From Stegostoma tigrinum (taxonomy: Eukaryota): DNA of 64,000 bases. The notes below the pieces were generated by a model. It did not search any database. It worked only from the letters and a program-made list of their open reading frames with translations, and had not been told where the DNA came from. Below, piece by piece: positions 425-61,511 of this stretch; position 1 is the stretch's first letter, and the number at the start of each line of letters is the position of its first letter. Made by a program: the position numbers and the translations under genes. The stretch lies in contig NC_081388.1 of the NCBI RefSeq assembly GCF_030684315.1, positions 23,357,015 through 23,421,014 on the forward strand, given 5' to 3'.

Positions 425-734
425 GGAATTTCTCCATATTATTGCCTAAAATTAACCTCTTTGTAATATCCCGGGAAGGGGGTGGGTCTTGATGTAGTGG
501 AATTGCTCGACAGGCCCGGAAGCACACTTACAGTTTCTGATTCCAGCCCAGAGCAGTGATGAGCCTTTTGTTTAAATTCTACAAACATGGATTTTAGGAG
601 GAAATCTCTGCTTGGATGTCTTTACTTCTCCGTGTTAATGTTCAGAATAACAGGTGAGTTATTGTGAACAAAGTAAATTCCTTTTTCTGTTTTGTTCAGT
701 GTGTGTCCAGACCTGGTACTCCTGGGGGCTTTCC
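425..734 (+). promoter_or_regulatory. Gene C promoter and intron-1 motifs: kB-like, GAS-like, GC box, ETS, intronic kB
   Basis: GGAATTTCTCC 425-435; TCCCGGGAA 469-477; GGGGGTGGG 478-486; CCGGAAG 516-522; GGGGCTTTCC 725-734. Confidence 0.5.
587..653 (+). CDS. Gene C (inverted paralog) exon 1, leader peptide MDFRRKSLLGCLYFSVLMFRIT
   Basis: aaacATGG Kozak context, 67 bp, consensus phase-1 donor CAG|gtgagt; 6 of 22 ungapped identities to the gene A leader (M1,F3,S7,G10,F14,T22). Confidence 0.7.
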
Positions 735-3526
735 GCTTTGCTGATAATTTAGTTGAACATTTGGGGCACTTTATTTTGGAGACGCTACTGATGGGTTGTG
801 GCGAAGGTAGGGAACAAAGAACTACAAAGTCCCGCTCCGTTTAACTTGTGCTGAAACGTCAAGTGCGGTCGTGTTGCCTGGTACGAATGGGACCAGCGCT
901 TCAGCGTCAAACTCTGAGAGTCGTGGCCAATTCTCTGTCCCATGTCGAGTGAAGGACAAGCGAGAGGTTGGGGCAGCAGTGCGGGTGATGGTCCTTCGCA
1001 GTGGGGAGCCATCCCAGGCAATTTTCCTGAAATGATGCTTCTTCCTATCCCCAGCTCTGGTGTAAAAGATAAAACAGAAAATGCTGGAGAAACTCAGCAG
1101 TGTTAGCAGCAACGATGCATCGAGAAACCGAGTTGACAGTCTAGTGTGACGACTTTAGAAGTGAAAAGTTGGGAAAAGAGGTGCGCTTTTAACATCAGCA
1201 TGTTGAATTTGTTACAACGCACGTCCAGTCAAGTGGGACTTGAATGCCTGGTCCAGATGTAGGGACACTATCATAGGGACTCTGGTAGCGCCTTTAAGTG
1301 TCCTACTCATGGACCAAGAGTCTTGGGTTCAAGTCCCACCTGATCCAGCGCTGTGTAGTAACATCTCTGAACAGGGTGGGTTAGGAAATGTCTAAAAGTG
1401 ACACATTCCTGGTGAAAGGGTCTGTACCACAGACACTCCAGATCCTGAAGTGGTGAACTTTGTCTCGCAGAGGGGGTTCCGGGCCGGGGCCTGTGAACAG
1501 ATGATACAGGTGGCCCAAGTAAAGGCAAGGGGAATTTAATGGCTTGTGGAAAATTGGGCAATCTGTATGGATGGAACATTACTGATTAAACATGGTATTC
1601 CTCATGCAGAGCCCTGGCCTTTCAACAGGAGGGCAGAGCCTGATGTCCTGTCCTCCCAATTTCTAGTTCTTAATTTTACTGATGAAACGGTGAGGGTAGT
1701 GCTCTCTTGCAGAATGTTCAGGTGGCGTTCTCTCAGACAGCGGATCGGCAAACAAAGACATAGCTGATACTGAGACAGTGATAAATGGTAGAAAGTGTGC
1801 CAAGAAGAAGTGTGAATAATTAAAAATGGGTTGGCTGTGCAAGAAGTAACCCAGGCACTGCAGGACTTCGGGGATGGGGGCGGGGTAACCAACATGGAAG
1901 ACCGTGAAATAGTTGAAGTCAATGCTTTTTCCTGATGGCTGTAAGCTACCTGGGAGAATGATGAGATGTTGCTCCTCCAACTTGCATTGAGCCTGAGCCA
2001 CATTGCTGTTGTTCTGGAGTCACATGAGGGCCAGACCAGGCAAGGGTGACAGTTTCCCTCGCGAAAGGACATCAGTGAACGAGGTGGGTTTTTCCAACAA
2101 TTGACAATGGATTCACGGTCATCATTAAACTCTTAATTCCAGACATTTACTGAATTCGAAGTCCAACATCTCCCTTGGCAGGATTTGAATGCAGGTGCCC
2201 AGAACGTTATCTGTATCTCTCCATTTACACCCAAGTGATAATATAACTAGGCCACTGCCTCCCCTGGAATAAAAAGTTAACTTAATGGCAAACACACAAC
2301 AATTATTGATTGTAATTAAAGGATACCTGGTTCACTAATGTCGTTTCTGGGAGGATATCTGCTGTCCTTACCCAGTCTGGCCTACATGGGACTCCAGGCT
2401 CAAAGCGATGTGGTTGATTCTGAACTGCCCTTCGGGGAATTAAGGATGAGCAACAATCACTAAACCAACAATGACACATCCCTTGAACAGATAAAAGAAA
2501 TAGCGAGGGATTTCCACAATTTTGACCCAGTGACGCTGAAGGAATGGCAATTTAATTCCAAGCCAGGATGCCAAGAGGCCTAGAGGGGAATTTGGAGGAG
2601 GTGGTATTCCCATGTGTCTGCTTCCCTTGATCTTCTCATCGGAAGTGATCATGAATTTGGAAGGTGGTGTTGATTGAACTTGGATGAACTGCTGCAGTGA
2701 ATCTCCTCCTAGATGGTACGCCATGCTTTGTGGTGAAGAGAATGTATATTAAAGATAGTGGTCATGCCTATCAAATGGGTTCCTTCATCCTGGATAGTGT
2801 CAAGCTTCTTGAGTGTTGTTGGAGATGCACTCATTCAGGCAAGTGTGGAGTATTCCATTGCACTCCTGACTCATGCTTTGTAGATAGTGGACACGATTTG
2901 AAGAAGGAGGAGATGAGTCATTCACCACAGAATTCCTAGCCTCTGATCTATTTTTGTAGCCGCAGTGCTTGTATGACATGTTCAGTTCCGTTTTTGAGAA
3001 ATGGTAACCCCCAGGATGCTGAAAGCTTGTTAAAGGTCTGGAGTCACATGTAGGCTGAAGTCATTTCCACCAGTTTTTACAAAGTTTCATGTGAAACAAG
3101 AGAAAGCAGCTCATCCAACACCATTGCAGGGAGAACCTTTCCACATGGCAGTCTTCAACGGGACCTGCACTTACGCAGGCATGAAGGCCCACAAGCTGCC
3201 TTGAGTACTGGTAACCTGGTCTGCTTCCAGGCAGTTCATCAGTCTCTGTTGTATTGGGAAACTGGAGACTGAATGGAAAATCTCAAACAGCCTCTCTTAT
3301 TCCCCTTAACAAGGGAATGAATGAGTCTAATCGGTAGCTGCAGAGGTGGGTTGGGGATTCCTACTGGGTGCACACATAGTTCAGGCTACATGCTGGAGTT
3401 GACAAAATGTTGGGAAGCTGTACACTGGTTAGTCCACTTCCATTCCTGACCTGCACCAAGTGGAGGCCTGAAACTTTAAACACACTATTTCTGTGAATCC
3501 TATTAACTGTGATTCTCCTTTAACAG

Positions 3527-3841
3527 ATCGAGAGATAAACACTACATTGCTCCCTGAAGTGCTGGAGGTTAATAGGAGATATAGTCTGCAGTGCATCGGA
3601 CCAAGAGTCTACCCAAACAACAAACTCATTCTCACATGGATAAGAGGGAGTGAGACTGTTCAGAGAAATTCTGCAGAAAACCAAGGTCTTCCGGATGAAG
3701 ATAACAGGTTGAGAAATGTCTTCAATTTCACTGCAAGTCTATTAGATGATGGACAGGAGTACACCTGCTTGGCTGAAGTGGACTTGGGCTCTAACACCAC
3801 AATGTCAATCACAAACTCCTCTGTCACTCTGCAAACCTACT
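3527..3841 (+). CDS. Gene C: inverted copy of the Ig domain 2 exon (possibly an orphan or pseudo-exon)
   Basis: Open frame, intact ag/gt sites, 13 nt differences in 315 versus 20360-20674; phase-compatible with 587-653. Confidence 0.7.
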
Positions 3842-4029
3842 GTAAGTTCCTGTTGCACCAGGCACACTCTCCTCAGTCAGAGAATACCTTGGATTAATGA
3901 GTCTCATCTTGGCCTCAACTCCACTTTCCTGCCTTCCTAATTCGTTGCTGTACCCACAAATATATTTTCTGTTAGTCATGCACAAGGACACCCAGTTCGC
4001 TCTGCACCAAAACTCTGTGAAATATCTTT

Positions 4030-8823: not shown

Positions 8824-9059
8824 TCATTGATTTAATCCATTTGTAATTGTTTCTCCACAATATGGATCAAGTTTCTTTAAAGGAAAACTCTTCTGGTATT
8901 CATGCCCATTGGGGATCTGTGCATTGTTGTTGGGTTTTGCATTCTGTACATTATATTCTCCTCTTTTACGGGCATTGAATTTCTGGTACAAGGCCGTCAC
9001 TACCGCAGTCGTCAATACTGCTGCTATTCCTACGGTCACTACTATTATCCATTTTAAGC
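8824..9059 (-). CDS. Gene A exon 8, transmembrane segment and cytoplasmic tail
   Basis: Acceptor tatgttctcatag|; [25 protein letters not shown] then [13 protein letters not shown]...[11 protein letters not shown] at 8826-8824. Confidence 0.9.
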
Positions 9060-12000
9060 CTATGAGAACATAGAAAGAAAAGATACACAGCTCATCAACA
9101 GTCTAGAGAAATATATTAATTGCAACATGTCTGAACATTTCCAAAATCTGTGGATTGTAAACAAAGGATATTTTTCAATGGAATATCCAGTGTGTTTTAT
9201 TCAGCTCTTTCCTGCCTGTTTTCTGTGTTGTGTTTTTCGCCTTTTTTCATTCCTCCCATACTACATGCTACTCCTTGGCAGCCTGTCCTCAATGCCCTGT
9301 CTATTCCTGGTTAAATTCTGCAGGAATTACATTCTCAAAACTCATCTGCACAAGTTCCATCTTTTTCATTTTTCCCATTGTCTCATTTTTGCCTATGAAC
9401 ATGCTTCAGGCCCCTGTATTACTATCAATTAATACATGCAGGTTTCTATTCTCGACATCATTAATCACCCAAATCATTTCTTCTTTTTCTAAAATTTTAA
9501 GCAGGGTCCAACATTTCTTCGATAATTTGTCCATCTTTTCCGTGTGATGCAAACTCATATGAAGATCCTATTTCTTTTTCATGTTTCAACCCTAAACATT
9601 CATCAGCATTTTCCCCCTGAGGCACTGATTGAGCTGCTGCGTTTGCAGAATGTCCTCCCTCTATTTTCTCGCTGTATTTATGCTGTTCACCCCTCACCCC
9701 TCACTATGAGAAGTGAAGCCCGGCGATGTGTGCTTTACTCATTGATCTGTCAATACTTTGCTCCATGGAGTGGCAGTGTGTGGAGTCACAGCCCCCCAAC
9801 CCCCCTTGAAGTTATTACCCAGGCATGTGGGACAAACACAGCGCAGGAGGAAGGTACTTCTATGCACAAAGAGACTGTCACTCTGAGCCACTTGTACCCA
9901 ATGTACCAGTTACAGAGCAGTATTATTAGAGACAGGGAGCAGTTTATCCACGTGTCCCATTTCCCGAAAGGGTGCGGGAGAACAGGAGCCCAAAGTAATA
10001 ATAACAACAGTAATATTAAATTCTGACCTTTGACCCTGATGTCCACATCCTTCTCATCACTTCCGTATTGATTGGTAGCTCTACATATATAAATTCCTTG
10101 ATGTTCTGAGGTTATGTACGGAATACGAAGAAATCCAGGACCAATCTCAATATTGTTGCCATTACTGGGATTTACCCACTCTAATACAGGTGAGGGTCTT
10201 CCATCGGACATACAGCTTAATGTAATTTCATCACCTTTAGTGACTTCTACTGGAAAGCCTGACACTGTTTTGTTATTTACTGATATGGTCATGAATGTGT
10301 CTCGTGGTTTATCTGGAAAAGAGAAGAAAAAGATGAAAATAGGCAGGCATACCCACAGGATCACTGATACAGCTCCCCAACACTGCTTCAGTTAGCAGGA
10401 TATCCAAACCTGGCCACATATTGTGCTCTTATCTAACTTCCAACAGTCATTTCAGAACAGGTGAATCTCTGCAGTAGAGTTGCAGCCTTGAGCTTGCTCA
10501 CAGTCATGTTGTTTTGATGTACGGTCACAGTGAAATGCAGTCATTGTGTAAATATTATTTCAGCATCAAGGCAACTGGATCTGACAGTCTAAGGATATCA
10601 CACAGTGTTCAGAGTACTCACAATAATGGAGATTCAAAGGTACAATTTCCTGTAATCTGATACTCACACAAAATGGTTACATTTAGAGATGAGGTTTTTA
10701 ATCCATGCTCATTTTTGACCATGCACACGTACAGTCCACCATGCTGCAGTTGAACAGATGGGATGTAGAGTAACCCTCTGCTTTCCATTTTCCCATCTTT
10801 GATCCAGACCCTCCGGGGAACTGGGTTCCCTTGCCCATGACATGTCAAATTCTGTGATTCCCCCTCAATCCAGTTTTCTTGAGCCTGAAAGATCTCTGCT
10901 TTTAATGGTGCATCTGTAAAATTCATTCCAAGTAAAAAAATAAGTCATGATATTGAATGACTCCAAATTCAAATATTTTTCAAATTCTTCTGCTATTTCT
11001 TTCGAGTGCTCTGTAGATGTCATTGTTCAGAATAAAACTTGCTTCTATTTTGAAAGCCAGCGTCAGTATCAAACAGCAGTAGGCTAAATAAAACACAGGA
11101 TAAAAGGCAGAATAACTTTCCCTGAATTCTGTGAAAATGCAACACTCTGAAGGCGCCTTTTGAGAAATTTCCATATTACTTTGACTTTCTGTTGGGGGTC
11201 CTGAGTAACTGAGGAAAAATTACAAATACAGGATTTACTCCCACTTGGAAATAAGTGGGCATATTAGCGAGAAGCGACATGGTTTTTGTGACAAGGAGGT
11301 CATATCTCACTAACTTGGTTGAGTTTTTTGAGGAAGTGACGAAGATGATCGATGATGGTAGGGCAGTGGCTGCTGTCTACATGGACTTCAGTAAGGTCTT
11401 TGACAAGGTCCCCAATGGCAGGCCGATACAGAAAGTAAAGTTGCACAGGTTCAGAGGTGAGCTTGCAAGATGGATAAAAAATCTGGATCGGTCATAGAAG
11501 ACAGACAGGAGCAGTAGAAGTGTGCGTTTCTGAATGGAGGGCTGTGACTAGTGGCATTCCTCAGGGATCAGCATTGGGACCTTTGCTATTTATAATACGT
11601 ATAAATGGTTTGGTGAAAAATGTAACTGGTCTGATTAGTAAGTTTGCCGATGACACAAAGGTTGGTGGAATTACGGCTAGCGATGGGGACCGTCAAAGAA
11701 TACAGTGGGATATAGATTGGTTGGTGACTTGGGCAGAGATGGAATCTGGAAAAATGTGAGGTAATGCATTTTGAAAGGAAATCTAGATGCAAAATATACA
11801 GAAGAGTACTGATAGGCAGAGTACACAGGGTATACAGGTCACTGAAAGTGGCAACGCAAGTGGAAAAGGTAATGAACAAGGCATACAGCATGCTGACCTT
11901 CATCGGCCAGGGCACTGAGTTTGAAAACTGCAGGTAATGTTGCAGCTTTAGAGAAACTTAGTTAGGCTACATTTGGAATATTGTGTTCAATTCTGGTCGT

Positions 12001-15000: not shown

Positions 15001-18000
15001 CATATTCCGCTTGGGAACCCTGCAGCCCAATGGTATCAATGTGGACTTCACTAGCTTCAAAATCTCCCCTCCCCCCACTGCATCCCAAAACCAGCCCAGT
15101 TCGTCCCCTCCACCCACTGCATCCCAAAACCAGTCCAACCTGTCTCTGCCTCCCTAACCTGTTCTTCCTCTCACCCATCCCTTCCTCCCACCTCAGGCCG
15201 CACCTCCATTTCCTACTTAATACCTCATCCCACCTCCTTGACCTGTCCGTCTTCCCTGGACTGACCTATCCCCTCCCCACCTCCCCACCTATACTCTCCT
15301 CTCCAGCTATCTTGTTTTCTCTCCATCTTCGGTCCGCCTCCCCCTCTCTCCCTATTTATTCCAGAACCCTCACCCCATCCCCCTCTCTGCTGAAGGGTCT
15401 AGGCCCGAAACGTCAGCTTTTGTGCTCCTGAGATGCTGCTGGGCCTGCTGTAGATACAGATTTCAGGTCTTTGGCTACACACCATGAGTTCAGCAATACC
15501 CCAGCTGTGCACACAGTAGAGAGAGCTGCCCACCAGCTTAAGAACAACAGGACTGCTGGAGCAGACGGTCACCCACCCACCCCACCCCCACTGAGGCATT
15601 GAAGTGCAGGTGTAAAGAGCTCTTGCTGCAGCTCCATGCCCTTGTCTGCCTTGTCTGAAACAAGGAGAACATCCCAGGAGAGCTCTGAGACGCCACAGTC
15701 GTGAGCATTTTCAACAAAGGGCAACTACAGGGCAGTCTCCCTGCTGTTGATGCCAAGGTCCTCCTGAACTGTCTCGTCCCTGTGGCTGAGAAACTCCTCC
15801 TGGGAGACTCAGTGTGAGAATCCTAATGATAATGGAATGGTATGGGTTAGATGGGCTTCAGATTGATTTCACAGGTCGGTGCAACATCGAGGGCCGAAGG
15901 GCCTGCACTGCGCTGTAATGTCCTATGCTCTGTGTTTCAGCCATGGAGGGGCCACAGTGTGCATGATTCTCACTGTGTGACAGCTACAGGAGAAATGCAG
16001 AGAACAGAACCTATCCCTGTAGGTGCTGCCTTTGACCTTACAAAGGCCTTTCACAACATCAATCGCGAAGCATTTTGAAGTGTCCTTCTCCACTTCGGTT
16101 GTACCACGAAGTTAGTCTCTGGCCCTTTCCTGCTCAGCGATGATATGGAAATTATTTGCCCAAGATCGTCCAACGTGGAGGAAGAGCAATTGGGAAGGCA
16201 TCGAACACCTTGAGACTTGTGCTGTTCAAAAATGGAAGCTGGGCGAAAGCAGTGAAAACAGAGTGTGCAGTCACACCAATGCCTGGCCGTGGCAGAGAGT
16301 GGAAGAATGTCATCTGCTAAGGACCACCAATGATGATGATGATGGATGTTGTGGGATGTGTTTGAGGATACTTGCCTCCATGGTTACACTTCAGGAAGGA
16401 GGTGATTTGTCTGGCATGGAAGAGTGTCATGATATTGGGACAAGAGATGAGGGACTTCCCTTATATGGAAACAATGAAAAGGTTTGGATTGTGCCATTCA
16501 AACAGTGAGGGCCAAGAGGGGTTCTCTCAGACATCTCCAAGGTGATGAATCAATTGTGGACAAATAAGGAGGAGTTTTTAGTGGCAAAAGGATTGATAAC
16601 CATTAGATACTGATTTCAGGTGATTAGAAAAGGAAAGAGTGAGATGTGATTGCTTTTTCAAAGAAAGCAATTGATTTTTTTCTCGAATTAACTGCCTGTA
16701 ATGATGGTGGAAGCAGATGCACTTCTGACTCTCATCAGAGAGAGTGAGAGACAAATATTTGAAAGAGAAACACTACAGTGTACATGCTCACATAGTTACA
16801 GTCTGTTGCACATTGCACTGGGGTAATAATGGACAGTGTCCTCACCTGGGGATCTCTGTCCCTTTGGCCTCTGTGAGAACAGGGCAGTCTCTGTGTGAGG
16901 AGACCAAATCAATTTGGTTAGGACCAAGAGGAGAGTCGGTATGAGAATTTCACTGGTGTCCATTTTGACAAAAAATCCCAATGACCTTTCATGAGGTAAA
17001 TAATGCTACTTACACAGGACATGGAGGGTTCCAACCTGTTGTTTAATAACAGGGCTGGTTATTGACTGATCTTGAAGTTTCAGTTCAGCTTCACAGATAA
17101 ACTGCTGTCCATCCAGCTTTGCTTGAGCCTGTACTGTATGAGAGATAGTGAGCCCAGTACTGCTCGATCCTTTCGCTAATATGTCATTTTCTTTCTTCAG
17201 TCTGAGTTCAAGATCCCCTGAGACATTTAATACATGGCACGTAATGTTAACCAGATTTCCTTCATGGCTGGTTGGTATTTGGATTTCAGGGGAAGAGAAA
17301 ACTAAAAACAAGAGACAGAAACTGTTAGAAACATTCCTTTGTCCTGTGGTCCCTCAGTGTGAGGTTAATAACAGTCACACAAAGGCAGACAGCAATTAGT
17401 CCTTCTTGCTCAGCCCCTACTTCATTGCTGTATCAGGATGGTGTACAAAGCCCTATAGCATCTTTCAGTGTTCCTTCAGTATTCCAAATATCTAACACAA
17501 CATTCATTCCTGACCCAAACTGACCAAAGCTATTGTAATATTTATTCTGCTCATTTCAGTTTGTAGAATCCTAAAATCTGTGTTTAGTTAAATTGTTCTC
17601 AGGGTTTAAGCATTTAACATCTGTCCTTGGTGAGTTTACTGTAAGTGGTTCACTCCAGAGGATATGTGCTAATGAAACAGTGGAACTGCTCTCAGAGATA
17701 ATTCTCTGGCTGTGAAACACTTTGAAAATCCCTGAGAATGAGAAAGGGACTACAGGAATGTACAATTCTTCTTTCATTTGGTCTTGTGGTAACTTGTGTT
17801 TGCAACTTTTGAAACGACATTTGTCAGTATTAAAGATTAGACAGTGGTCAATGTATTTACTGGTAGCTGCTTCTCTATTGTTTAAAGTGATGAAAGTTCT
17901 GACACGTTGCAATGTTGACAGTGATGAACTATCAGAATGTTGCTGAATGGTAAGCCACCCCAGCCCTCCCCCCACAACCAGAATCCTTACCGTACACCTC

Positions 18001-21000
18001 AATGAAGACCGTGTGATTCTTTGAGGGAACTGATGGATACTTCTCAAAATCAGCCATACAGACAACTTCGATCAGACCAGTTTCCTGCGGTGTCCACGCT
18101 GCTGTTGATTGGACAGTGTTAGAATTTGGCCTTGTGGTAACTGAGTTCAGTTCCTCACCATCCTGAAACCATCGTACTCTCATCTTCTCAACTGGATAGA
18201 CATCTGAGACCTCACATGTTAATATGACCTCTTGCTTCACTTCTTTGGGCCTTTTGTCCAGGATTCTAGGCTGATCCATGAAAGCTGTAATACAGACAAG
18301 AAATCCACTTCATTTTAATTTGCTGCGGTGTATTTTAGTTTTTAATGGACAGTGTGGAAAAGGGAGCAATGCAGGTATTGGACAATACATCACCCCAGGG
18401 ATTTACCACATTCACCCATAGTGAGGAAACTGGAGTCATCTGCAGGAGATTATATCGCACTATAAGAAGGATCTGCTAATGCCGATCATGGGATGTGACT
18501 GGTAAATTTGTCACAGCTTTTCTTATTCATTCACAGGGTGAGGGCGTTGCTGGCTGGGCAGCAACTACTGCCCATCCCTAATTGCCCAGAGGGCAGTTAA
18601 GAGTCAGCCACATTGCTGTAGGTCTGAAGTCACATGTCAGCCAGACCAGGTAAGGGTGGCAGTTTCCTTCCCTAAAGGACCAGATGGGTTTTTCTGACAA
18701 TTAACAATAGACTCATGAACACCATTGGAATCTTAAATTGTTTTTACTGAATTCAAATTCCACCATGGCAAAATTCGAACCCAGAACATGAACTAGATGT
18801 CTGGATTAATGGTCTAGCAATTTTGTGGGTAAAGATTATTCTCAGAAACCTCACTCTAGCTTTAGCATCAATTCCCTTAGCAAAATTTGTTTTACCTCAG
18901 ATTGTTTCACTTAAAGTCAAGATGTTTTGGAATACAATCCCATTATAAAGTGAAAGACACCCTATTTCTGTGTTTGCCTTACCTATACAAGTTCATATAT
19001 TTTACCCCATTTTTCGGTGGGCCTGTAGTCTTCCACCTGCTACACTGCAGTGGAGTAGTAGGGGCGAAGATCAATGCAAATATTCTTCAGAAATAACAAT
19101 CTCAAATATTTCATCAGTAACTCCTCCAGGCTGATGCTAAATTTAATATAGGGGATGATGGTGATGTCAAGTATCCACTTATCTTTTATTAACTGTTTAG
19201 CAAGCTCCTCGAAAAGCTGATTAAAAGGCCAGGACAGGTCAAACAGCTTGGTGCAAGCTAATACATAGTTGTTGGAGACAATACTGGGTGCTATTCATCA
19301 TGCTGATGATTGTAATAACTCAGGAAACCTAACTGGAAAGGAATATCCTTTCATTGTTGAACACCAAACTAGAGCCGCTACTGATGGGGTACGTGGGCTA
19401 CTTCCAATCCAGAACAGACAATTCCTCATTGATATTCTCCTGATCAAACTGGTTGGAGATGTTACAACACAACTCTGGAGCAGGTACAACTTGAAAACTG
19501 GGCCTCCTGGACTAGAGGTAAGGATACTCCACTGCACCACAAGGCAATGAGTTCCAGTTAGGCAGGCCATTGCCTCTTACCAGGGCAGCTCATACTCAAC
19601 AAGCTCCATGACGGGATTAATTAGTGATTCCCATGAACCTTGTAGGGTTATCACAATGATGAATAACATTATTTAATTATGGAATTCATGTGTGTTGTCT
19701 GATTTCCCACTTCTCTGCACCATAAGTCTGCTAGCCCTCCTGATCTCCTGCCTTCAGTGCTGCTGACTGCTTTCAAGGCTCGTGCTTAGCAGTAAGTTCC
19801 CATGTGATGTTAAGTTGGGGCAGAATCTGCTACTGGTTCAGTTATGGAATCTGCAATTTATGTGCTTTGTGTCAGCGTGTGGCATGAGATTAGGACCTGG
19901 AAGTGACCTCGGTATTAGAAATGACAAAGCACATGAATTCTGGGCTCCCTGACTAAACTAATAGTAGCCTCTGCTCCCACTTAATGTTCCCAGATTGAAA
20001 ATCAAGCCTCAGGAATCAGACTGGGCCTTGGATATCTTTTGGAGTCAAGTTATTCAGACTTAGTTTGGTTAAAAAAGAGAGTTATCACAAAATGATTGTA
20101 GACCCTCACTATCAAACTCTGATGAAGGGTCTAGGCCCGAAACGTCAGCTTTTGTGCTCCTGAGATGCTGCTTGGCCTGCTGTGTTCATCCAGCTCCACA
20201 CTTTGTTATCTTGGATTCTCCAGCATCTGCAGGTCCCATTAGCTCTTTACACATGCTCTGGCTGACTTAAAGTGAACATTTACATCTCCTGTATATTTGC
20301 ACCATAATCCCAAGAAAAGTTTTCTTTTGTTTGCAATATCTTGTGCAGCTGGAACTTACAGTAGGTTTGCAGAGTGACAGAGGAGTTTGTGATTGACATT
20401 GTGGTGTTAGAGCCCAAGTCCACTTCAGCCAAGCAGGTGTACTCCTGTCCATCATCTGATAGACTTGCAGTGAAATTGAAGACATTTCTCAACCTGTTAT
20501 CTTCATCCGGAAGACCTTGTCCTTCTCTAGAATTTCTCTGAACAATCTCACTCCCTCTCAACCATGTGAGAATGAGTTTGTTGTTTGGGTAGACTCTTGG
20601 TCCGATGCACTGCAGACTATATCTCCTGTTAACCTCCAGCACTTCAGGGAGTGATGTAATGTTTATCTCTCGATCTGTTAAAGGAGAATCACAGTTAATA
20701 GGATTCACAGAAATAGTGCACCTATGGATTCTGTTCCACCTCCTCACACATTTATTCACGTGCATAAGAGGTGTAAGTATGTATATATATTCATTCAACA
20801 AGAAGTTACTGAAATACCTCCACACAGGCTGATATCCTGTCACCAAACGACCCTTTATTTAGACATGGAGAGTCCTTGGTACTGATTCACCTTCCTCAGA
20901 GACTGTTCTCAGGGTGAACAGAGCCTCTGACAACAGTGTGGAGATGGAGGAATACAGCAGGCCAGGCAGCATCAGAGGAGCAGGAAAGTTGGTGTTTCAG

Positions 21001-39000: not shown

Positions 39001-41342
39001 ACACTCTTATCTGGGAAGTCTACCTGACATATGTGCCCCTGTCACTTTCAGAAATGGAGGATCAAAGGCCACCCTACCGTCCGCATGGCACTGCCTGATT
39101 GGGTCTGATCAATCAGGGTAATCGATTCCTGATCGATCCATTGATGGGAATGGAAGATCCTCCCAAAGGGGTGCAGAAGCTTCCAAGGATAAGAATCCCC
39201 ACAAAAGCACCCTCAGGAGCGGTAACTCGGGACAAGCCACCATTAGCAGAGGTGCCCCTGGGAGCACCAGGAGAGGAAGGCCAGACAAGCATCAGCGTGT
39301 GGATCAAGGCTAAGGTCTCCTGTGGCGATGTTTGATCATTCCAAGTGAAAGTACAATGTACTGATTTAGGGTGACAGTGTTAATTGTCAGATTTATAGTA
39401 TGAATTGTTAGTTTGTGGCATAATCACTAATATAATATTAGCTGTTATAAGCAATGAAGATAATTTCATACTACCATTTAGAGTTGACTAAGCCCTTTGG
39501 AAGCTAAGCACACTTTCCTCTTTGTAACTTAGACCCCACCAACAAAACGCACTGATCATACCTTCAGTATTCATGCCTAGGTTTAGATTCCCTACAGTGT
39601 GGAAACAGGCCCTTCGGCCCAACAATTCACACCGCCCCTTGGAGCATCACACCCAGTCCCATCCCCCTATAACCCACACACCCCTGAACACTGCAGGCAA
39701 CTTAGCATGGCCGATCCACCTAGCCTGCACATCTTTGGACTGTGGGAGGAAACCCACAGAGACACGGGGAGAATGTGCAAACTCCACACAGACAGTCGCC
39801 TGAGGCTGGAATCGAACCCGGGTCCCTAGTGCTGTGAGGCTGCAGTGCTGACCACTGAGCCACCGTGCTGCCCATTATTCTACCACAAGAAACAGCAAAG
39901 CTTGCAGCACCCCTTCCTGTGGAACTCCATCTGCAACCACCAGCCTCTCTCCCGGTCACCAGCCAGTTTCGGATCCATTTGCCAAATTGCCCTGGATTCC
40001 GTGGTCTCTGGTATTCCTAGGCAGAATGTGAACATTCTGCCGCTCGGAACCTCTACACAAACCTGACAGTTACTGTCAGTCTCAATCTACCCGATACACT
40101 CATTAACCACTGTAACGGCAACTGTCTCCAAAGAAAAAGAATCCTATTGTTGCAAAGCTTGAGATTTCATGCTGTCTTTATCCCATGTGCACTTCCATTT
40201 AATTTCATTTTTCATTTAGTGTTAATGGAAAATGAAAAATCCCCTTCTGTTGAAGCTCTGATGTAACTGCTGGTGATGAAGATGTAACTACATACTGTGC
40301 TGGGAGCTGTGAGTGTGGATGGAAAGTCCCCGCACAATTCCGGGGACAGGGATAGGTTATCTCAATGAGACGAGAACATTCTTGTGCCGAGATTCAGTCC
40401 AGCTCAGTAGGGAATTCCCGTCACTTTGCCGTTATTTGAGCCTCTCAAACGGTCACCATCTTTATTACCGATGATCCCTACTGAAATGCTAAATACAGAA
40501 GGAACAGTTGTGTGCGCGAAACAGGGATTCTTTACATCGCGGGCAACAACTTTCTCACATNNNNNNNNNNNNNNNNNNNNNNNNNNNNNNNNNNNNNNNN
40601 NNNNNNNNNNNNNNNNNNNNNNNNNNNNNNNNNNNNNNNNNNNNNNNNNNNNNNNNNNNNNNNNNNNNNNNNNNNNNNNNNNNNNNNNNNNNNNNNNNNN
40701 NNNNNNNNNNNNNNNNNNNNNNNNNNNNNNNNNNNNNNNNNNNNNNNNNNNNNNNNNNNNNNNNNNNNNNNNNNNNNNNNNNNNNNNNNNNNNNNNNNNN
40801 NNNNNNNNNNNNNNNNNNNNNNNNNNNNNNNNNNNNNNNNNNNNNNNNNNNNNNNNNNNNNNNNNNNNNNNNNNNNNNNNNNNNNNNNNNNNNNNNNNNN
40901 NNNNNNNNNNNNNNNNNNNNNNNNGAGTGTATGTGTGTGCCTGTGAGTGTATGTGTCCGTGTGTGTGCCTNNNNNNNNNNNNNNNNNNNNNNNNNNNNNN
41001 NNNNNNNNNNNNNNNNNNNNNNNNNNNNNNNNNNNNNNNNNNNNNNNNNNNNNNNNNNNNNNNNNNNNNNNNNNNNNNNNNNNNNNNNNNNNNNNNNNNN
41101 NNNNNNNNNNNNNNNNNNNNNNNNNNNNNNNNNNNNNNNNNNNNNNNNNNNNNNNNNNNNNNNNNNNNNNNNNNNNNNNNNNNNNNNNNNNNNNNNNNNN
41201 NNNNNNNNNNNNNNNNNNNNNNNNGTACGTGTCCGTGTGTGTGTCTGAGAGTGTATGTGTCTGTGTGTGTGTCTGTGAGTGTATGTGTGTGTGTGTCTGT
41301 GCGTGTCTGTGAGTGTATGTGTGTGTCTGTGAGTGTATGTGT

Positions 41343-41379
<37 letters not shown>

Positions 41380-42006
41380 GTGGCAGTTTGAGCAGAGATC
41401 CCAGGTCCTGGGACAGGACCCACCAACAGCCCAACACTGTCAGGGTCTAGCAGTTTCGGACGTCAGAAACCGATCACAAGAAGCGGCTCTAACTCTAGGT
41501 GAATGAACTCAAAAGCTCCAATTCCTCAGTGGAGCGCAGGGCACTCAGCCCCAGAGACACCGCTTCCTCTGCTCGGGCAATTGCGAAGAGGGTTCAGAAT
41601 TTGCGCCGGGTGGGCTGGGGGGCTTATAGAACCCAACTTCCAGCAAACATATCAAACATCGCAGCCAGCTTTATTTATCACAAGGCAGACTGAATCACAG
41701 CAACACGTAATCCGTGAAGTTAGCCCTCTGTCTTTCTGCTTCCCTCAGCACAAACTGAAAACGTGCCCGATAATTGTCGTTCTTCACGGCTAGGAATAAC
41801 AGGAAAGTCAATCCTCGAACGCAAAATCAATTGCACACAAGAAATGCCCGCATATAAACAGAACTGTACACGTCGCGAACCGCAGCACAAATACACTCAG
41901 TAAACACCATGCACTGATTCTAAATATGTTTTTACCTACTTGTCACATAAGAAGTGATAGTCAAGAACTGAATAAGTCCATGAGGTGACATGATCTGGAA
42001 GCCCAT
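8824..42006 (-). CDS. Gene A: ICAM-family (ICAM/VCAM-like) type I membrane protein, 6 Ig domains, 667 aa; join(42006-41940,29499-29227,20674-20360,18284-17991,17301-17014,10913-10668,10312-10028,9059-8824)
   Basis: Eight exons joined by GT-AG phase-1 introns give an uninterrupted 2004-bp frame. D1 has CSTSC and CFVRC as in ICAM D1; D5 has [17 protein letters not shown] resembling ICAM-1 D5; a TM segment is followed by RKRGEYNV. Orthology to a specific ICAM is not determinable here. Confidence 0.88.
9497..9703 (-). pseudogene. Cryptic or relic terminal exon inside gene A intron 7
   Basis: Acceptor cttctcatag| resembles the exon 8 acceptor; a tandem TGAGGGG repeat shifts the frame; the downstream frame contains SAN...GENADECL, also found in frame after the gene B stop. 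Confidence 0.4.
10028..10312 (-). CDS. Gene A exon 7, Ig domain 6
   Basis: Acceptor tctcttttccag|, weak donor G|gtcaga, 285 bp; [15 protein letters not shown]...[12 protein letters not shown]. Confidence 0.92.
10668..10913 (-). CDS. Gene A exon 6, Ig domain 5
   Basis: Acceptor aattttacag|, donor T|gtgagt, 246 bp; [10 protein letters not shown]...[12 protein letters not shown]. Confidence 0.92.
11260..12515 (+). mobile_element. CR1 LINE 3' fragment
   Basis: [47 protein letters not shown]. Confidence 0.9.
12530..16300 (+). mobile_element. Degenerate RTE-clade LINE with nested insertions
   Basis: APE start TWNVRTLMD...ALCET, RT motif FDLTKAF, C-terminal [10 protein letters not shown]; many frameshifts. 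Confidence 0.65.
13879..16619 (+). repeat. Local direct duplication of about 240 bp (13879-14117 and 16381-16619)
   Basis: Both copies begin TGGTTACACTTCAGGAAGGAGG and match with few substitutions. Confidence 0.9.
14118..15451 (+). mobile_element. 5'-truncated Penelope-like element with inverted terminal segment and 15-bp TSD
   Basis: GIY-YIG ORF 14570-15157 (VVYCIQC..C...YIGET...RFAEH); about 14200-14467 is an inverted copy of about 15160-15440; AGATACAGATTTCAG at 14103-14117 and 15452-15466. Confidence 0.88.
17014..17301 (-). CDS. Gene A exon 5, Ig domain 4
   Basis: Acceptor cttgtttttag|, donor T|gtaagt, 288 bp; EGNLVNITC...[12 protein letters not shown]. Confidence 0.92.
17991..18284 (-). 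CDS. Gene A exon 4, Ig domain 3
   Basis: Acceptor tgtattacag|, donor G|gtaagg, 294 bp; [10 protein letters not shown]...VRWFQDG...VVC. Confidence 0.92.
20119..20146 (+). ncRNA. Minimal hammerhead ribozyme motif in a Penelope terminal-repeat fragment
   Basis: CTGATGA-A-GGGT-ctag-GCCC-GAAA-CG-TC: both core boxes, a helix II, and palindromic ACGT at helix III. Helix I is weak. Confidence 0.6.
20360..20674 (-). CDS. Gene A exon 3, Ig domain 2
   Basis: Acceptor ctcctttaacag|, donor T|gtaagt, 315 bp; CIGPRVYP...LTWLRG...DDGQEYTC. Confidence 0.92.
20810..28454 (-). mobile_element. Degenerate Gypsy/Ty3 LTR retrotransposon filling most of gene A intron 2
   Basis: Fragmented gag ([11 protein letters not shown]), RT ([16 protein letters not shown]), RNase H (SDHKPLLGL) and integrase ([12 protein letters not shown]-x2-C). 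5' LTR 28454-28266 followed by TGG PBS-like sequence; 3' LTR split into 24219-24190 and about 20933-20810. Confidence 0.8.
20935..24185 (-). mobile_element. Degenerate Penelope-like element nested in the Gypsy 3' LTR
   Basis: Collinear similarity to the Penelope RT/GIY-YIG copies at 35602-37130 and 14468-15450; terminal-repeat copies near 20950 and 23710. Confidence 0.8.
29227..29499 (-). CDS. Gene A exon 2, Ig domain 1 (integrin-binding type)
   Basis: Acceptor ttttcttggcag|, donor A|gtaagt, 273 bp; NCSTSC...IILEYK...CFVRCNREQ. Confidence 0.92.
30840..31700 (-). mobile_element. Highly decayed CR1 fragment
   Basis: [25 protein letters not shown] remnants. Confidence 0.55.
33210..35009 (-). 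mobile_element. Old CR1 LINE fragment with nested SINE
   Basis: [13 protein letters not shown] and [10 protein letters not shown] remnants; tail near 33210. Confidence 0.75.
35010..35601 (-). mobile_element. Young CR1 LINE 3' end
   Basis: Intact ORF2 C-terminus (35103-35570) and (TGTTCTA)n tail; nearly identical to 38300-38880. Confidence 0.92.
35602..37130 (-). mobile_element. Penelope-like element RT fragment
   Basis: ORFs with [29 protein letters not shown] and YIDD motifs; interrupted by a stop and a frameshift. Confidence 0.88.
37633..38880 (+). mobile_element. Young 5'-truncated CR1 LINE (RT domain open)
   Basis: 403-aa ORF with [28 protein letters not shown]; (TGTTCTA)n tail. Confidence 0.95.
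39580..39871 (-). mobile_element. tRNA-derived SINE (HE1-like); related copies at about 7949-8196 and 44540-44828
   Basis: Head GGCAGCACGGTGGCTCAGTGG...GGGTTCGATTCC (A and B boxes), body GTGTGGAGTTTGCACATTCTCCCCGTG, CR1-like tail. Confidence 0.8.
40228..40419. promoter_or_regulatory. Candidate NF-kB/IRF enhancer in gene A intron 1
   Basis: GGAAAGTCCC 40321-40330 (reverse complement GGGACTTTCC), GGGAATTCCC 40410-40419, GAAAAATCCCC 40234-40244, GAAAATGAAA 40228-40237. Confidence 0.55.
40561..41224. other. Assembly gaps (40561-40923 and 40971-41224)
   Basis: Runs of N. Confidence 1.
40924..41375. repeat. (GT)n-rich compound microsatellite
   Basis: GTGT/GTCT/GAGTGTAT runs flanking the N gaps. 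Confidence 0.95.
41940..42006 (-). CDS. Gene A exon 1, leader peptide [22 protein letters not shown]
   Basis: ATG in gagATGG context, 67 bp, phase-1 donor A|gtaggt in frame with exon 2; GAS motif 86 bp upstream; same length as, and alignable to, the 587-653 exon. Confidence 0.72.
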
Positions 42007-42059
42007 CTCGCCGGAACGTGGTTGGGGCTCGGCAAACTGTGCTCGACCTGACTAACACC

Positions 42060-42275
42060 AGCTCGATATTAATAAAAGTGACCTACGTCCTTTCCCGGAA
42101 GCTATTCAGAAACCAAGGCAAAAATTCCAGAGGAATAGTTCCAACATCTTGTTTCAGCATTTGATATATTGCCATCTCCCAAATATGGGAGACATTCAAT
42201 TCACAGCAGACAAACAGCACTGAACAGATCAGAAACTTTCCCCGAAATTAATAAAACGAAACTATTCAGAAATCA
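42060..42275 (-). promoter_or_regulatory. Gene A proximal promoter: GAS x2, ISRE-like, AT-rich TATA-like
   Basis: TTCCCGGAA 42092-42100; TTTCCCCGAAA 42237-42247; AAAACGAAACT 42253-42263; TTTATTAATA on the minus strand near 42067-42076. Confidence 0.6.
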
Positions 42276-53666: not shown

Positions 53667-53839
53667 TCAATTATCCCTGATGGGATTCATTGACCTATCT
53701 CCCACAGGTTGATTTCTATCGCAGACATTATAGCTGCCACTTCTATTTGCAGTGCTGAACTTATTGATAAGTGTTATAATCAATCCGATGGCTATGCCAA
53801 TTGTCACGCAGATTATTGGAGAGACTCTGTATCTTGTAC
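53667..53839 (-). CDS. Second, divergent ICAM-type TM/cytoplasmic exon: GTRYRVSPIICVTIGIAIGLIITLINKFSTANRSGSYNVCDRNQPVGDRSMNPIRDN*
   Basis: Branch-point-like cactaat and acceptor atcttcacag|, phase 1; hydrophobic segment plus KF...GSYNV aligns with IIVVTVGIA...KF...GEYNV of the other TM exons. Not in the ORF track. Confidence 0.75.
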
Positions 53840-54519
53840 CTGTGAAGATATTAGTGAAAACACAAATTATTGCTTTGTTTCAAAGCAACATGTTTATAAT
53901 GAAGAAATCCATTGCTTAATCACATCATTCCCACATTTACCAGATAGACTGAGTTGGTTCAAGGAGGAAACTCAACCCTACCTTTGCACAGGCGATTCTC
54001 AAAGAATCAGTATGGGACGAGCAGGAACATCCTACAACTAATGATATCAGAAAATCAAAGCCATTGTCGAAAGCTGCTGTGATAATTCCCATTCCCTTTG
54101 CAGTCCTGCCTTTGAGCCTGAATAAACCTGCCCCTGACATTAGCCTTCTCGGCAAGCCTGTGTTGAATTTCTGACCCCAATTATGTTTGCAACACTCAGA
54201 CCACCCACTTCCACTGCAATAATATTGCATGTCTCTGGCCTTGCCTCAACCCATTGACTTCTGAAACCCCCATGCCCGCACTTGTTATCTTGAAACTCGC
54301 CTTAACCTTCAAAACCCACTGCTCCAACTGGACTCTGCCAATTTTATAAATTTGCACCCTCTGTGAAATTAATTTCATCTAACTCTGATCTCCATAACCT
54401 AACACACACCCATTCTATTTACCCACAATGCCTGTGCTTGCTGACCTGTCAGAAAGCAATATTTGACACAGACACGTATAATCCATTGACCCCTACAGTC
54501 AGCTGGACTGTAAGAATTA

Positions 54520-58330: not shown

Positions 58331-58969
58331 TTGTAGGAGGGAGAGGTTGAAGGGTCAGTGAATAGCCTGCACAGGATCTTAGTGCTCAGCTGGGGACACT
58401 GTCCAGGAAGACCGATCTGAATTCTGACGTAGTAACAGAAGGAACATTTGTGCCTGTGTTTCCAATTCCGGTCCAAGTTCACTGCCATGGATTTGCCATA
58501 ATTCTGATGCCAAAACTTTGTCAATTTCAACTTGAAGAGTTCAGTTCAAAGTCTCCTGGTTTGGAAGCTCTACAAACTAGAAACCACAGCAGCTAATGTG
58601 ACTGGTTCCCCTGAACTGACTTAATTTTGCTTCTTGAAGAAATTATTCTATTTCCTGAGAAGGGCTCTGCTATTTTCTGAACTAAACCTTTGAACCTTCT
58701 GTTCTGAGATTAAAACAGAACTAATTCCCTTAATACATGTGAGCTGCTTTTCATAAGTACAAGACTGTAAGCATTTTACCCACGAACACAACAGCGGCTC
58801 CTGCAGGGATTCTACAATCATCACATATTATGGTGAGACTAAGATATTTAGTTTGCACATTGATTTTGTTTTAAGGTCAGAAAGTCAAAGAAACGACCGA
58901 CATCCATCCATCTCTCCTTTGAGATCAAACTCCTACAATAATATGTTACACATTATTTATCATTGCTTC

Positions 58970-59780
58970 ATAGGTGGAGGGACAGGTCATGCTTGGGAAG
59001 TGGGGAGGCTGCAGAAGGACTTGGACAGGTTAGGAGAGTGGGCAAAAAAAATGACAGATGGAATATGATGTGGGAAAGTGTGAGATTCTGCACTTTGGTA
59101 GGAAGAATAAAGACTTGGGAGTCCTAGTTCAGGATTCTCTTAAGGTTAGCATGCAGGTTCAGTTGGTGGCTCGGAAGGCAAATACAATGTTAGCATTCAT
59201 GCCAGGAGAGCTAGGATACAAAAGCAGGGATGTATACTGATACTCATATGTCTCTGGTCAGATTGCATTTGCAATATTGTGATCAGTGTTGGGCCCCATA
59301 TCTAAGGGAAGATGTGATCACATTTCAGGAGCTCCAGAGGAGGGTTACAAGAAAGATCTCTGGGATGAAGGATTTGTCATATGAAGAGTGTTTGAGTATG
59401 CAAAGGTGTTTATAATGCTGAGGGGGATCTGATTGAAATGTACACAACACTGAGAGGCCTGGATAGAGGAGGTGGAGAAGACGTTTCCACTAGCAGGAGA
59501 GACCTGGATCTGAGACCACAGCATCAGAATGAAGGGGTGACCCTTTAGAAATCAAATGAGGGTGATTAATCTGTGGAACTCATTGTCACAGTGGGCTGTA
59601 GAGGCCAAGTCATTGAATGTGTCTTCAAGACAGAGATATTTGGTTCTTGATTGGGAATGGGATCAAAGCTTAGGGGGAGAAGGCAGGAAAATGGATTTGA
59701 GAAATTTCAGCCACAACCAGAAGGTGCACCAGATGTAACAGCGGGATAATCTAATCCTTTTTCTACATCTTATGGTCCTG
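58970..59780 (+). mobile_element. Old CR1 3' fragment
   Basis: RLQKDLDRLGEWAKK, KCEILHFGRKN, VINLWNSL. Confidence 0.75.
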
Positions 59781-60059
59781 CAGCTTCTGTAGCACGTCTT
59801 GGGATGTCTATTACATTAAAGGTTCCAGAAAAATGCATGTTCTTGTTGTTGACAGAAGGATTCTCAAAATATGATGACTTTCTTTCATCGTTTAAGTAGG
59901 TCTCAGAATTTTGCTTCCACCACAATTAAAGATTTTCTTCATTTATAACTTTTCAGACCTAAACAAACATTCATCAGCATTTTCCCCGAGACACTGATTG
60001 CGTTGGGTGTTTGCAGAACATATTTCATACCAGTTTGTAATTGTTGCTGTGTTACCGAG

Positions 60060-60259
60060 CTAGGGATGACATTCCACCAGAGGGACATCTTCCTGATGAT
60101 TATTCCCATTGGGGATCTGTGCATTGTTGTTGGGTTTTGCATTCTGTACATTATATTCTCCTCTTTTACGGGCATTGAATTTCTGGTACAAGGCCGCCAC
60201 TACCGCAGTCGTCAATACTGCTGCTATTCCTACGGTCACTACTATTATCCATTTTAAGC
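60060..60259 (-). CDS. Gene B TM/cytoplasmic exon 1 (tail ends ...IPNGNNHQEDVPLVECHP*)
   Basis: Same acceptor as gene A exon 8; 1 nt difference over the first 155 bp, then diverges; TAG at 60062-60060. Confidence 0.82.
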
Positions 60260-61511
60260 CTATGAGAACATAGAAAGAAAAGATACACAGCCCATCAACA
60301 GTCTAGAGAAATATATTAATTGCAACATGTCTGAACATTTCCAAAATCTGTGGATTGTAAACAAAGGATATTTTTCAATGAAATGTCCAGTGTGTTTTAT
60401 TCAGCTCTTTCCTGCCTGTTTTCCATGTTGTGTTCTGCGCCTTCTTTCATTCCTCCCATACTACATGCCACTCCTTGGCAGCGTGCCCTCAACTCCCTGT
60501 CTATTCCTGGTTAAATCCTGCAGGAATAACTAAATTCAATGTGATGTTCCAAACAAATTGATAACAGCATTTCTTTTCGCTGGTTTGAATTTCCGGAATT
60601 GATAATTCCTATCTATCTCTTACATTGCTAATAGCATGATTAAATGTCGTCTCCTTCTTTCAGAATCCAACCCTAAACATTCATCAGCACTATCCCTGAG
60701 GCACTGATTGAGCTGCTGCGTTTGCAGAATGTCCTCCCTGTATTTTCTCGCTGTATTTATGCTGTTCACCCCTCACCCCTCACTATGAGAAGTGAAGCCC
60801 GGCGATGTGTGCTTTACTCATTGATCTGTCAATACTTTGCTCCATGGAGTGGCAGTGTGTGGAGTCACAGCCCCCCAACCCCCCTTGAAGTTATTACCCA
60901 GGCATGTGGGACAAACACAGCGCAGGAGGAAGGTACTTCAACACACGAAAAGGAACACATGCAGGAGACTGTCTCTCTGAGCCACTTGTACCCAATGTAC
61001 CAGTTACAGAGCAGTATTATTAGAGACAGGGAGCAGTTTATCCACATGTCCCATTTCCAGAAAGGGTGCGGGAGAACAGGAGCCCAAAGTAATAAGAACA
61101 ATAGTAATATAAAATTCTGACCTTTGACCCTGATGTCCACATCCTTCTCATCACTTCCATATTGATTGGTAGCTCTACATATATAAATTCCTTGATGTTC
61201 TGAGGTTATGTACGGAATACGAAGAAATCGAGGACCAATCTCAATATTGTTGCCATTACTGGGATTTACCCACTCTAATACAGGTGAGGGTCTTCCATCG
61301 GACATACAGCTTAATGTAATTTCATCAGCTTTAGTGACTTCTACTGGAAAGCCTGACACTGTTTTGTTATTTACTGATATGGTCATGAATGTGTCTCGTG
61401 GTTTATCTGGAAAAGAGAAGAAAAAGATGAAAATAGGCAGGCATACCCACAGGATCACTGATACAGCTCCCCAACACTGCTTCAGTTAGCAGGATATCCA
61501 AACCTGGCCAC
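60105..61511 (+). repeat. Near-identical direct duplicate block, copy 2 (partner 8905-10417)
   Basis: Direct comparison as above. Confidence 0.95.
61122..61406 (-). CDS. Gene B (upstream tandem ICAM-like paralog): last Ig exon
   Basis: 285 bp, same splice sites as gene A exon 7, 3 nt differences by hand count (2 amino-acid changes). Earlier exons are not in the window. Confidence 0.85.

Follow-up and report, generated by a model that had tools for sequence, protein, structure and literature searches.

The window discussed here, a stretch of 64,000 nucleotides (nt) from the zebra shark, Stegostoma tigrinum (NC_081388.1, positions 23,357,015-23,421,014 of the forward strand; GCF_030684315.1), is part of an ICAM-like gene cluster. 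Together with ICAM-like proteins of other chondrichthyans, its exons suggest that those for the stalk immunoglobulin (Ig) domains D2, D3, D4, and D6 are probably kept near-identical within each shark species by repeated gene conversion at the DNA level, while the N-terminal domain, D1, mostly escapes. A preliminary description of the window had proposed a homogenized last Ig domain (D6) and gene conversion that keeps the extracellular modules alike. D6 is indeed homogenized and conversion is likely; the process, however, is broader than proposed in that it also takes in D2, D3, and D4, the exception being D1 (30-67% identical among five zebra shark paralogs).

The cross-species data comprise 113 retrieved proteins, of which 106 from 22 chondrichthyan species were split into domains; seven unnamed or non-chondrichthyan entries were excluded. 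Forty-three proteins were sorted by hand into five classes (A-E) according to leader, architecture, and tail, and D5 was left out of the identity comparison. In the zebra shark, which has at least five paralogs, identity is 30-67% in D1, 93-99% in D2, 100% in D3, 97-100% in D4, and 97-99% in D6. Stalk domains of different classes within the same species are more alike than those of the same class in different species: 94.0% (n = 49) versus 78.5% (n = 183) for D2, 98.6% (n = 14) versus 78.6% (n = 42) for D3, 97.8% (n = 15) versus 77.1% (n = 34) for D4, and 95.2% (n = 13) versus 70.3% (n = 46) for D6. The corresponding values for D1 are 51.3% (n = 50) and 55.1% (n = 185).

Per-exon phylogenies across sharks, suggested earlier as a check and run here as domain protein trees, group the stalk domains by lineage and D1 of classes B and E by gene. 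On the D2, D3, D4, and D6 trees, the number of lineage changes is the minimum possible (8 for 9 states, 6 for 7, 5 for 6, and 7 for 8, respectively), the shuffled minima being 26, 9, 8, and 11; class labels on the same trees do no better than shuffled ones. On the D1 tree, the class E sequences of sharks and rays come together in a single group (100/100), and those of class B form another (74/66). Approximately unbiased (AU) tests reject a D1 clade restricted to the zebra shark (p ~2e-5) as well as a class-B D2 clade (p ~3e-5). The closest D2 belongs to the same species in 32 of 37 cases and the closest D1 in 11 of 37, and D2 identity exceeds D1 identity in 44 of 46 same-species pairs. Moreover, a count made without reference to the classes, covering same-species pairs with D1 below 70%, gave D2 identities of at least 86% in all shark pairs (78/78, 11 species).

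The anatomy of the window was derived from tblastn of RefSeq proteins against it and from six-frame searches with profile hidden Markov models (HMMs) for D1-D6, D6b, the transmembrane (TM) segment, and the leader. With the last Ig exon as query, 18 proteins were recovered, and the top three by identity (98-100%) are zebra shark ICAM-like RefSeq models. Gene B is complete on the minus strand (42006-8824), with leader, D1, D2, D3, D4, an extra D5, D6, and TM exons, and every exon agrees with P0007 (XP_059495782.1), a model that skips D5. Gene C, on the same strand, reaches into the window from its right-hand side, with D6 and a pair of last exons, its remaining upstream exons lying beyond the window; the last exons correspond to isoforms X1 (60259-60060) and X2 (53839-53667) of one RefSeq gene. 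The exons of both genes agree with RefSeq down to paralog-specific residues, and the genes have different leaders, flanks, and D1 (42% identical). Gene B, both gene C last exons, and the leader of gene A, an inverted third gene, are already encoded in automated RefSeq models. The features are as follows.

587-653, plus strand: gene A leader exon with phase-1 donor; leader profile match, 22/22 amino acids (aa) identical to the leader of P0008 (XP_059495907.1).
3527-3841, plus strand: gene A D2 exon, an orphan in the window; 95.8% nt identity to gene B D2, over 3483-3861 only.
8824-9059, minus strand: gene B TM and cytoplasmic tail exon; 78/78 aa identical to P0007.
8902-10423, minus strand: tract common to gene C (60102-61517), interrupted at 9331-9586 and ending inside the TM exon; 96% nt identity, sharp edges.
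9594-9703, minus strand: cryptic acceptor at 9703 (VRGEG-stop), then a probable relic of a last-exon 3′ untranslated region (UTR); 9650-9594 match the UTR of gene C TM1.
9789-10028, minus strand: open intron read-through behind gene B D6, 80 codons, likely chance.
10028-10312, minus strand: gene B last Ig exon, D6 (I-set); Pfam I-set E 5e-11, identical to P0007.
10668-10913, minus strand: additional, likely optional Ig exon of gene B, D5 (I-set); Pfam I-set E 3e-9, skipped in P0007.
17014-17301, minus strand: gene B D4 exon; tblastn and profile HMM.
17991-18284, minus strand: gene B D3 exon; Pfam ICAM1_3_5_D2 33.4 bits (cut-off 27.5).
20360-20674, minus strand: gene B D2 exon; top PDB sequence matches ICAM-2 and ICAM-5.
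29227-29499, minus strand: gene B D1 exon, ICAM N-terminal domain; scores 35.9 bits with Pfam ICAM_N (cut-off 21), top PDB match ICAM-3 D1.
41940-42006, minus strand: gene B leader exon; matches P0007 residues 1-22.
53667-53839, minus strand: gene C distal last exon (TM2), distinct tail; 57/57 aa identical to P0010 (XP_059495962.1), isoform X2.
60060-60259, minus strand: gene C proximal last exon (TM1), a mosaic; 66/66 aa identical to P0019 (XP_059495961.1), isoform X1.
60675-60782, minus strand: the same cryptic acceptor and probable relic UTR in gene C.
61122-60868, minus strand: gene C intron read-through behind D6, 85 codons.
61122-61406, minus strand: gene C last Ig exon, D6; has both residues that separate P0010 and P0019 from P0007.

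Two tracts in the window combine near-zero synonymous divergence with sharp edges. The D2 exons of genes A and B (3529-3840 and 20672-20361) differ at 12 nonsynonymous and one synonymous nt over 104 codons, and within ~44 and 20 nt of flank the similarity drops to background, the introns being unalignable. The 12:1 excess is not significant relative to the 3:1 expectation (binomial p ~0.13), and no positive selection is claimed. The second tract, shared by genes B and C, is ~1.5 kb long; it begins 111 nt above D6, is interrupted in mid-intron by a stretch that does not align, and stops within the TM exon, with mismatches at 3/285 and 2/157 positions in exons and 13/436 and 15/271 in introns. 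The near identity of the last Ig exons (10312-10028 and 61406-61122; 3 of 285 nt differ, and each exon ends in a phase-1 donor) is as first described. Taken together, the tracts take in intron flanks of 20-111 nt as well as the greater part of one intron.

We suggest that ectopic conversion would repeatedly copy stalk exons between old neighboring genes, because near-identical exons sit in unalignable introns. Since the tracts contain intron flanks, the template would be DNA; cDNA-templated conversion was rejected on account of the intron that the tracts include. D1, once it had diverged too far or come under selection, as for new ligands, would cease to be a conversion substrate. Given the repeated modules in other species, unequal crossing-over likely contributes as well. 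That unequal crossing-over and exon shuffling, and not nonreciprocal conversion, replaced or multiplied the stalk modules is rather improbable. Repeated modules do occur in protein models (D6 six times in Cetorhinus and D3-D4 three times in Hemitrygon) and domain number varies among paralogs, but the tracts are short and have two sharp edges, one of them inside an exon, one partner is inverted, and the flanks are gene-specific. Purifying selection as the sole reason for the likeness of the stalks is scarcely credible. The exons of the B/C tract (~1% different) are more alike than its introns (3-5.5%), as selection would have it; selection would, however, unite orthologs rather than paralogs, yet the stalks have diverged by 20-30% between species and are alike within each. 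Synonymous sites are also held (one difference in 104 codons between A and B D2), so that selection alone is insufficient.

Could the genes instead be recent, duplicated whole in each species and followed by very fast divergence of D1 and tail? Mammalian CEACAM1-like genes have been read in this way (PMC2832619, in excerpt), and such birth and death could account for classes A, C, and D in those species whose D1 are near-identical too. After recent whole-gene duplication, introns would be alike, but those beside exons of 96-99% identity are unalignable, and the D1 of classes E and B, the leaders, and the tails of D and E are found again in distantly related sharks. Birth and death is therefore disfavored for classes B and E, and as a general explanation it is highly improbable. 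A further concern is that the similarity or the gene structure reflects an artifact of assembly or annotation (collapsed repeats, haplotigs, or chimeric models). Gene A is incomplete in the window and complete in RefSeq, N gaps lie at a CA microsatellite, and fused models exist. Genes B and C, however, retain their own variants and match separate RefSeq models exactly, leaders, D1, and flanks differ, and the same pattern recurs in 11 shark species, whose stalk variants are particular to each. Artifact is thus a plausible, even the somewhat favored, reason for the truncation of gene A and a very unlikely one for the whole pattern.

Several points nevertheless weigh against conversion of the stalk with escape of D1. 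Window data alone cannot distinguish conversion from unequal crossing-over, and synonymous rates and intron sequences come from this window alone. The cross-species data are automated protein models, several of them visibly fused; pairs are non-independent, and classes were assigned by eye, partly with awareness of D1. The likelihood gaps in the AU tests (>220 units) are possibly inflated by a poor constrained search, class B is poorly supported (74/66), and the base of the D1 tree joins two long branches. Classes A, C, and D are not clades in that tree, and in Heterodontus, Heptranchias, Mustelus, Scyliorhinus, and one Chiloscyllium pair, D1 identity among these classes is 89-96%. Finally, the class-free count in rays gave D2 identities of at least 85% in one of 20 pairs (four species), which speaks against an elasmobranch-wide pattern. 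Ray paralogs with divergent D1 have divergent D2 too (species means 58-79%), unlike those of sharks, and in rays, conversion of D2 with class E has apparently ceased or was never under way.

Stalk conversion with D1 escape makes concerted evolution confined to certain domains open to testing in a family of leukocyte-adhesion genes; it has apparently persisted from early in shark evolution and is weak or lacking in rays. The unequal escape of D1 among lineages constitutes a natural experiment on what stops conversion, and D1 is indicated as the site of ligand difference (integrin or pathogen) among shark ICAM paralogs. There is also a practical consequence: because most exons are not assignable to one gene, neither whole-protein trees nor short-read expression values nor automated models can be relied on for shark ICAMs. 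The surprise is limited in that the genes and two alternative tails are already annotated and soluble forms are unsupported.

In mammals, the ICAM paralogs have diverged widely in every domain. Near-identical within-species stalks thus set the shark paralogs apart from mammalian ICAM-1, -2, -3, and -5, which they otherwise resemble in an ICAM_N D1 with two CxxxC motifs and a Glu, ICAM-type D2/D3, and clustered genes. One phase-1 exon per Ig domain and exon-skipped isoforms are also common to both (PMC10215618, in excerpt).

Clustered protocadherins share with the shark genes an adhesion-gene cluster, regional conversion, and divergent N-terminal domains. In protocadherins, conversion takes place within one large variable exon, and constant tail exons are common to the genes. 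The shark ICAM-like genes differ in exon-by-exon conversion across multi-kb introns and in having their own tail or tails. The fish protocadherins, as excerpted from PMC1852091, show lineage-specific homogenization of the C-terminal ectodomain (>99% nt), with divergent N-terminal domains as a specificity code. CEACAM and Siglec genes likewise form Ig-superfamily clusters, partly inverted, with exon-limited conversion. Their polarity is opposite: the ligand-binding N domain is homogenized and the tails carry opposing immunoreceptor tyrosine-based inhibitory or activation motifs (ITIM/ITAM), whereas in the shark D1 diverges, the stalk is common, and the three window tails, inspected by eye, are without a two-tyrosine ITAM and have a FERM-type motif in common. 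For the CEACAM paired receptors, the excerpted source describes conversion tracts that scarcely reach introns and a homogenized N domain (PMC2832619), and the escape of some members from conversion has been documented (PMC7042247, in excerpt). Paired activating/inhibitory receptors were rejected as an identity for the shark genes, as a "shared ligand-binding domain" fails with D1 at 30-67% identity among zebra shark paralogs. No report on shark ICAM evolution or ICAM concerted evolution was found in the titles and abstract openings of the open literature. Regional conversion as a process is already known from protocadherins; the ICAM case is apparently unreported. The RefSeq models are silent on concerted evolution, and none of those retrieved has the cryptic exon or the read-through discussed below.

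The assignment to an ICAM cluster, made in the preliminary description, is borne out by Pfam (ICAM_N and ICAM1_3_5_D2) and by PDB sequence and fold matches. D1 of gene B scores above the Pfam ICAM_N (PF03921) cut-off (35.9 bits vs 21) and D3 above that of ICAM1_3_5_D2. Gene B D1 has two CxxxC motifs and a conserved Glu. Four D1 cysteines, arranged as two CxxxC motifs, are an ICAM feature; they are present in all five zebra shark D1 and invariant in 17/17 aligned proteins. In VCAM-1 and MAdCAM-1, the integrin-binding residue is an Asp in the D1 CD loop (IDSP/LDT). A VCAM-1 or MAdCAM-1 identity was rejected, since all five zebra shark D1 have Glu in this place. E63 of D1 aligns with the ICAM-3 D1 motif Glu, is invariant (17/17), and, in the structure model, is located where strand 58-62 ends. 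Best PDB sequence matches are ICAM-3, -5, and -2, with no VCAM or MAdCAM among them. The gene B protein model (mean pLDDT 75, pTM 0.47) has one TM helix, 509-541, and in Foldseek, four of the top five rows belong to ICAM-5 and one to ICAM-1, with E values of 1e-22 to 5e-19 and low whole-chain TM-scores of 0.26-0.32. ICAM-1 engages LFA-1 via Glu34 in D1 and dimerizes through D3-D5 (PMC10215618, in excerpt). By analogy, the shark D1 glutamate likely binds the integrin metal ion-dependent adhesion site, and the tails likely dock ezrin/radixin/moesin (ERM) proteins. The RefSeq names (ICAM1-, 4-, and 5-like, VCAM1-like) are labels and imply no one-to-one orthology with mammalian genes.

The three TM/tail exons (9059-8824, 60259-60060, and 53839-53667) are open and have AG acceptors and a hydrophobic 19-mer (Kyte-Doolittle 2.45-2.58). 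The preliminary description took them for three distinct exons; all three are real and annotated, but two share 51 of 52 residues, which leaves two tail types and a mosaic. Specifically, the gene B TM exon and gene C TM1 match at 155/157 nt and 51/52 aa, and their last 26 and 14 residues then differ (4/14 match). Of those 14 residues, 10 match the gene A tail, and likewise a Chiloscyllium plagiosum tail. The tract ends inside the first TM exon of gene C, and TM1 is therefore a mosaic of 52 B-like aa and 14 of its own. TM2 is distinct (15/52). A juxtamembrane basic-x-G-x-Y-x-V motif is kept in all three window tails, and a relaxed ERM-type motif is present in 34 of 47 shark and chimaera tails. 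The radixin-binding motif of ICAM-2 is RxxTYxVxxA (PMC3155308, in excerpt); relative to it, gene B and TM1 show two substitutions, K in place of R and E in place of T, and retain Y, V, and A, and TM2 is without the final A. The tails thus differ mostly behind a common segment that, by this analogy, is predicted to dock ERM proteins.

Each of the two gene C last exons is modeled in RefSeq, which suggests that the gene likely chooses between them. Paired last exons are modeled in three orectolobiform species, the zebra shark, C. plagiosum, and Hemiscyllium ocellatum. TM2 did not significantly match P0016, the C. plagiosum protein with the alternative tail (E 0.055, outside the tail), and orthology of distal tails across species is not claimed. 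The idea of diversified signaling tails thus stands as far as the two modeled exons go, but TM1 is mostly a copy of gene B and the motif is common to all three. The partners in homogenization of the TM/tail exon vary: A and B in Heterodontus (P0036/P0109) and C. punctatum (P0014/P0011), B and C in the zebra shark (P0007/P0019). Class D proteins from eight shark species (P0035, P0091, P0028, P0061, P0064, P0067/P0068, P0001, and P0004) have a conserved TM segment, almost no cytoplasmic tail, and no tyrosine motif, and are candidates for a nonsignaling or decoy form.

Gene A was described as an inverted paralog that shares only D2. This holds within the window, where only the leader and D2 are present on the plus strand and six-frame profile HMM searches gave no further or degraded gene A exon. 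It does not hold for the RefSeq protein with the same leader, P0008, a full five-domain protein with the gene A-identical leader, D1, D2, D3, D4, D6, and a tail, whose D3, D4, and D6 are 100, 96.8, and 98.9% identical to those of gene B. Because the window copy is incomplete and P0008 is full-length, "shares only D2" does not describe the paralog. The gene A D2 has four P0008-specific residues yet differs from P0008 at 3 of 104 aa, where genes B and C match RefSeq exactly. The gene A region lies in a part of the window without N gaps (1-40560). On balance, we lean toward a mis-join as the cause of the truncation; a real truncated copy or allele is a serious, if somewhat less favored, option.

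The preliminary description also envisaged soluble forms made through a cryptic TM-less exon or through intron read-through. An AG at 9703 and at 60782 indeed leads to VRGEG-stop in the D6 frame. This adds five residues only, and the exon has no internal sign of use. The last nine nt of the cryptic acceptor and the TM acceptor are the same, and ~50 nt further along, positions 9650-9594 align with the UTR directly after the TM1 stop, with 86% identity in 57 columns (E 2e-11). Because of this UTR-like sequence and the 9-nt acceptor match, the cryptic exon is likely the relic of a decayed last exon from which the part encoding the TM segment has gone. Behind D6, the intron stays open for 80 (gene B) and 85 (gene C) codons. 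The probability of at least 80 open codons is 0.049 from 18,516 random non-exonic starts and 0.018 from shuffles; over the 10 donors examined, nine of them independent, the chance of at least one such read-through is ~15-36%. Judged on the sequence, the open frame is therefore likely due to chance. It begins with a hydrophobic stretch (Kyte-Doolittle 1.9-2.0), so that its product would not be plainly soluble, and five of its first 48 codons differ between B and C, four with a change of residue. A search for the read-through peptide in full-length proteins was negative (0/26 candidates at E up to 1), which is weak evidence, and none of the eight retrieved zebra shark models ends in the cryptic exon or the read-through.

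Regulated soluble forms from this locus, alongside several signaling tails, are consequently unlikely, and diversification into membrane and soluble forms is unsupported by the sequence. In their favor, the cryptic acceptor has the last 9 nt of the TM acceptor, an AATAAA lies ~500 nt downstream in both copies (9201 and 60401), the open frame persists across a 15-nt indel between B and C, and a spliced soluble isoform of human ICAM-1 is known (PMC10215618, in excerpt). However, the two copies of the cryptic exon lie in one shared tract and are counted once, the acceptor is followed by what resembles a decayed last-exon UTR, and the read-through has the chance length, nonsynonymous changes (4 of 5), and hydrophobic start already mentioned.

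A more far-reaching reading would see the shark ICAM locus as a cassette system, in which old D1 heads sit on one homogenized stalk with interchangeable tails, and paralog heterodimers and inter-gene splicing produce a combinatorial adhesion repertoire. We regard this as a long shot. If true, identical D3-D4 stalks would allow paralog heterodimers, inter-gene splicing would join one head to another tail, and the head-tail swaps in C. plagiosum and H. ocellatum models (P0012 and P0022) and the E+C fusions would be real transcripts. In RefSeq models P0012, P0022, P0098, and P0027 from other sharks, the leader and D1 of one class are joined to the tail of another, or neighbors are fused; these models reflect either mis-assigned reads or real inter-gene splicing.

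The D5 exon of gene B (10913-10668) is a sixth Ig exon, absent from the preliminary description, with a weak pyrimidine tract at its acceptor. It is 89% identical to D5 of C. punctatum isoform X1, and isoform X2 of that species is without D5; no equivalent was found in the 2.5 kb above gene C D6. These features suggest that D5 is likely an optional exon that sets stalk length.

Upstream of gene B, a sequence resembling a gamma-activated sequence (GAS), TTCCCGGAA, lies at 42092-42100, 86-94 nt above the ATG, and its position is suggestive. The cytokine-response region of human ICAM1 spans -116 to -36 from the start codon (PMC10215618, in excerpt). The count of GAS-like motifs across the window is not above chance (2 vs 1.38 expected; 38 of 100 shuffles reach 2), and the gene A and gene B promoters have no nucleotide similarity to each other. 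kB-like words were seen by eye near both leaders. No flanking gene was recognized within the window.

Two N gaps (40561-40924 and 40971-41224) lie within the CA microsatellite in the first intron of gene B. The D1-D2 intron of this gene holds a stretch (~24500-28500, minus strand) that, judged by eye, resembles a decayed long terminal repeat retrotransposon, and the other introns are full of fragments of long and short interspersed elements (LINEs and SINEs). An inverted pair of 583 nt (35021-35603 and 38880-38298; 99.3% identity) is situated around repeat sequence and represents a recent insertion, a conversion, or an assembly duplicate.

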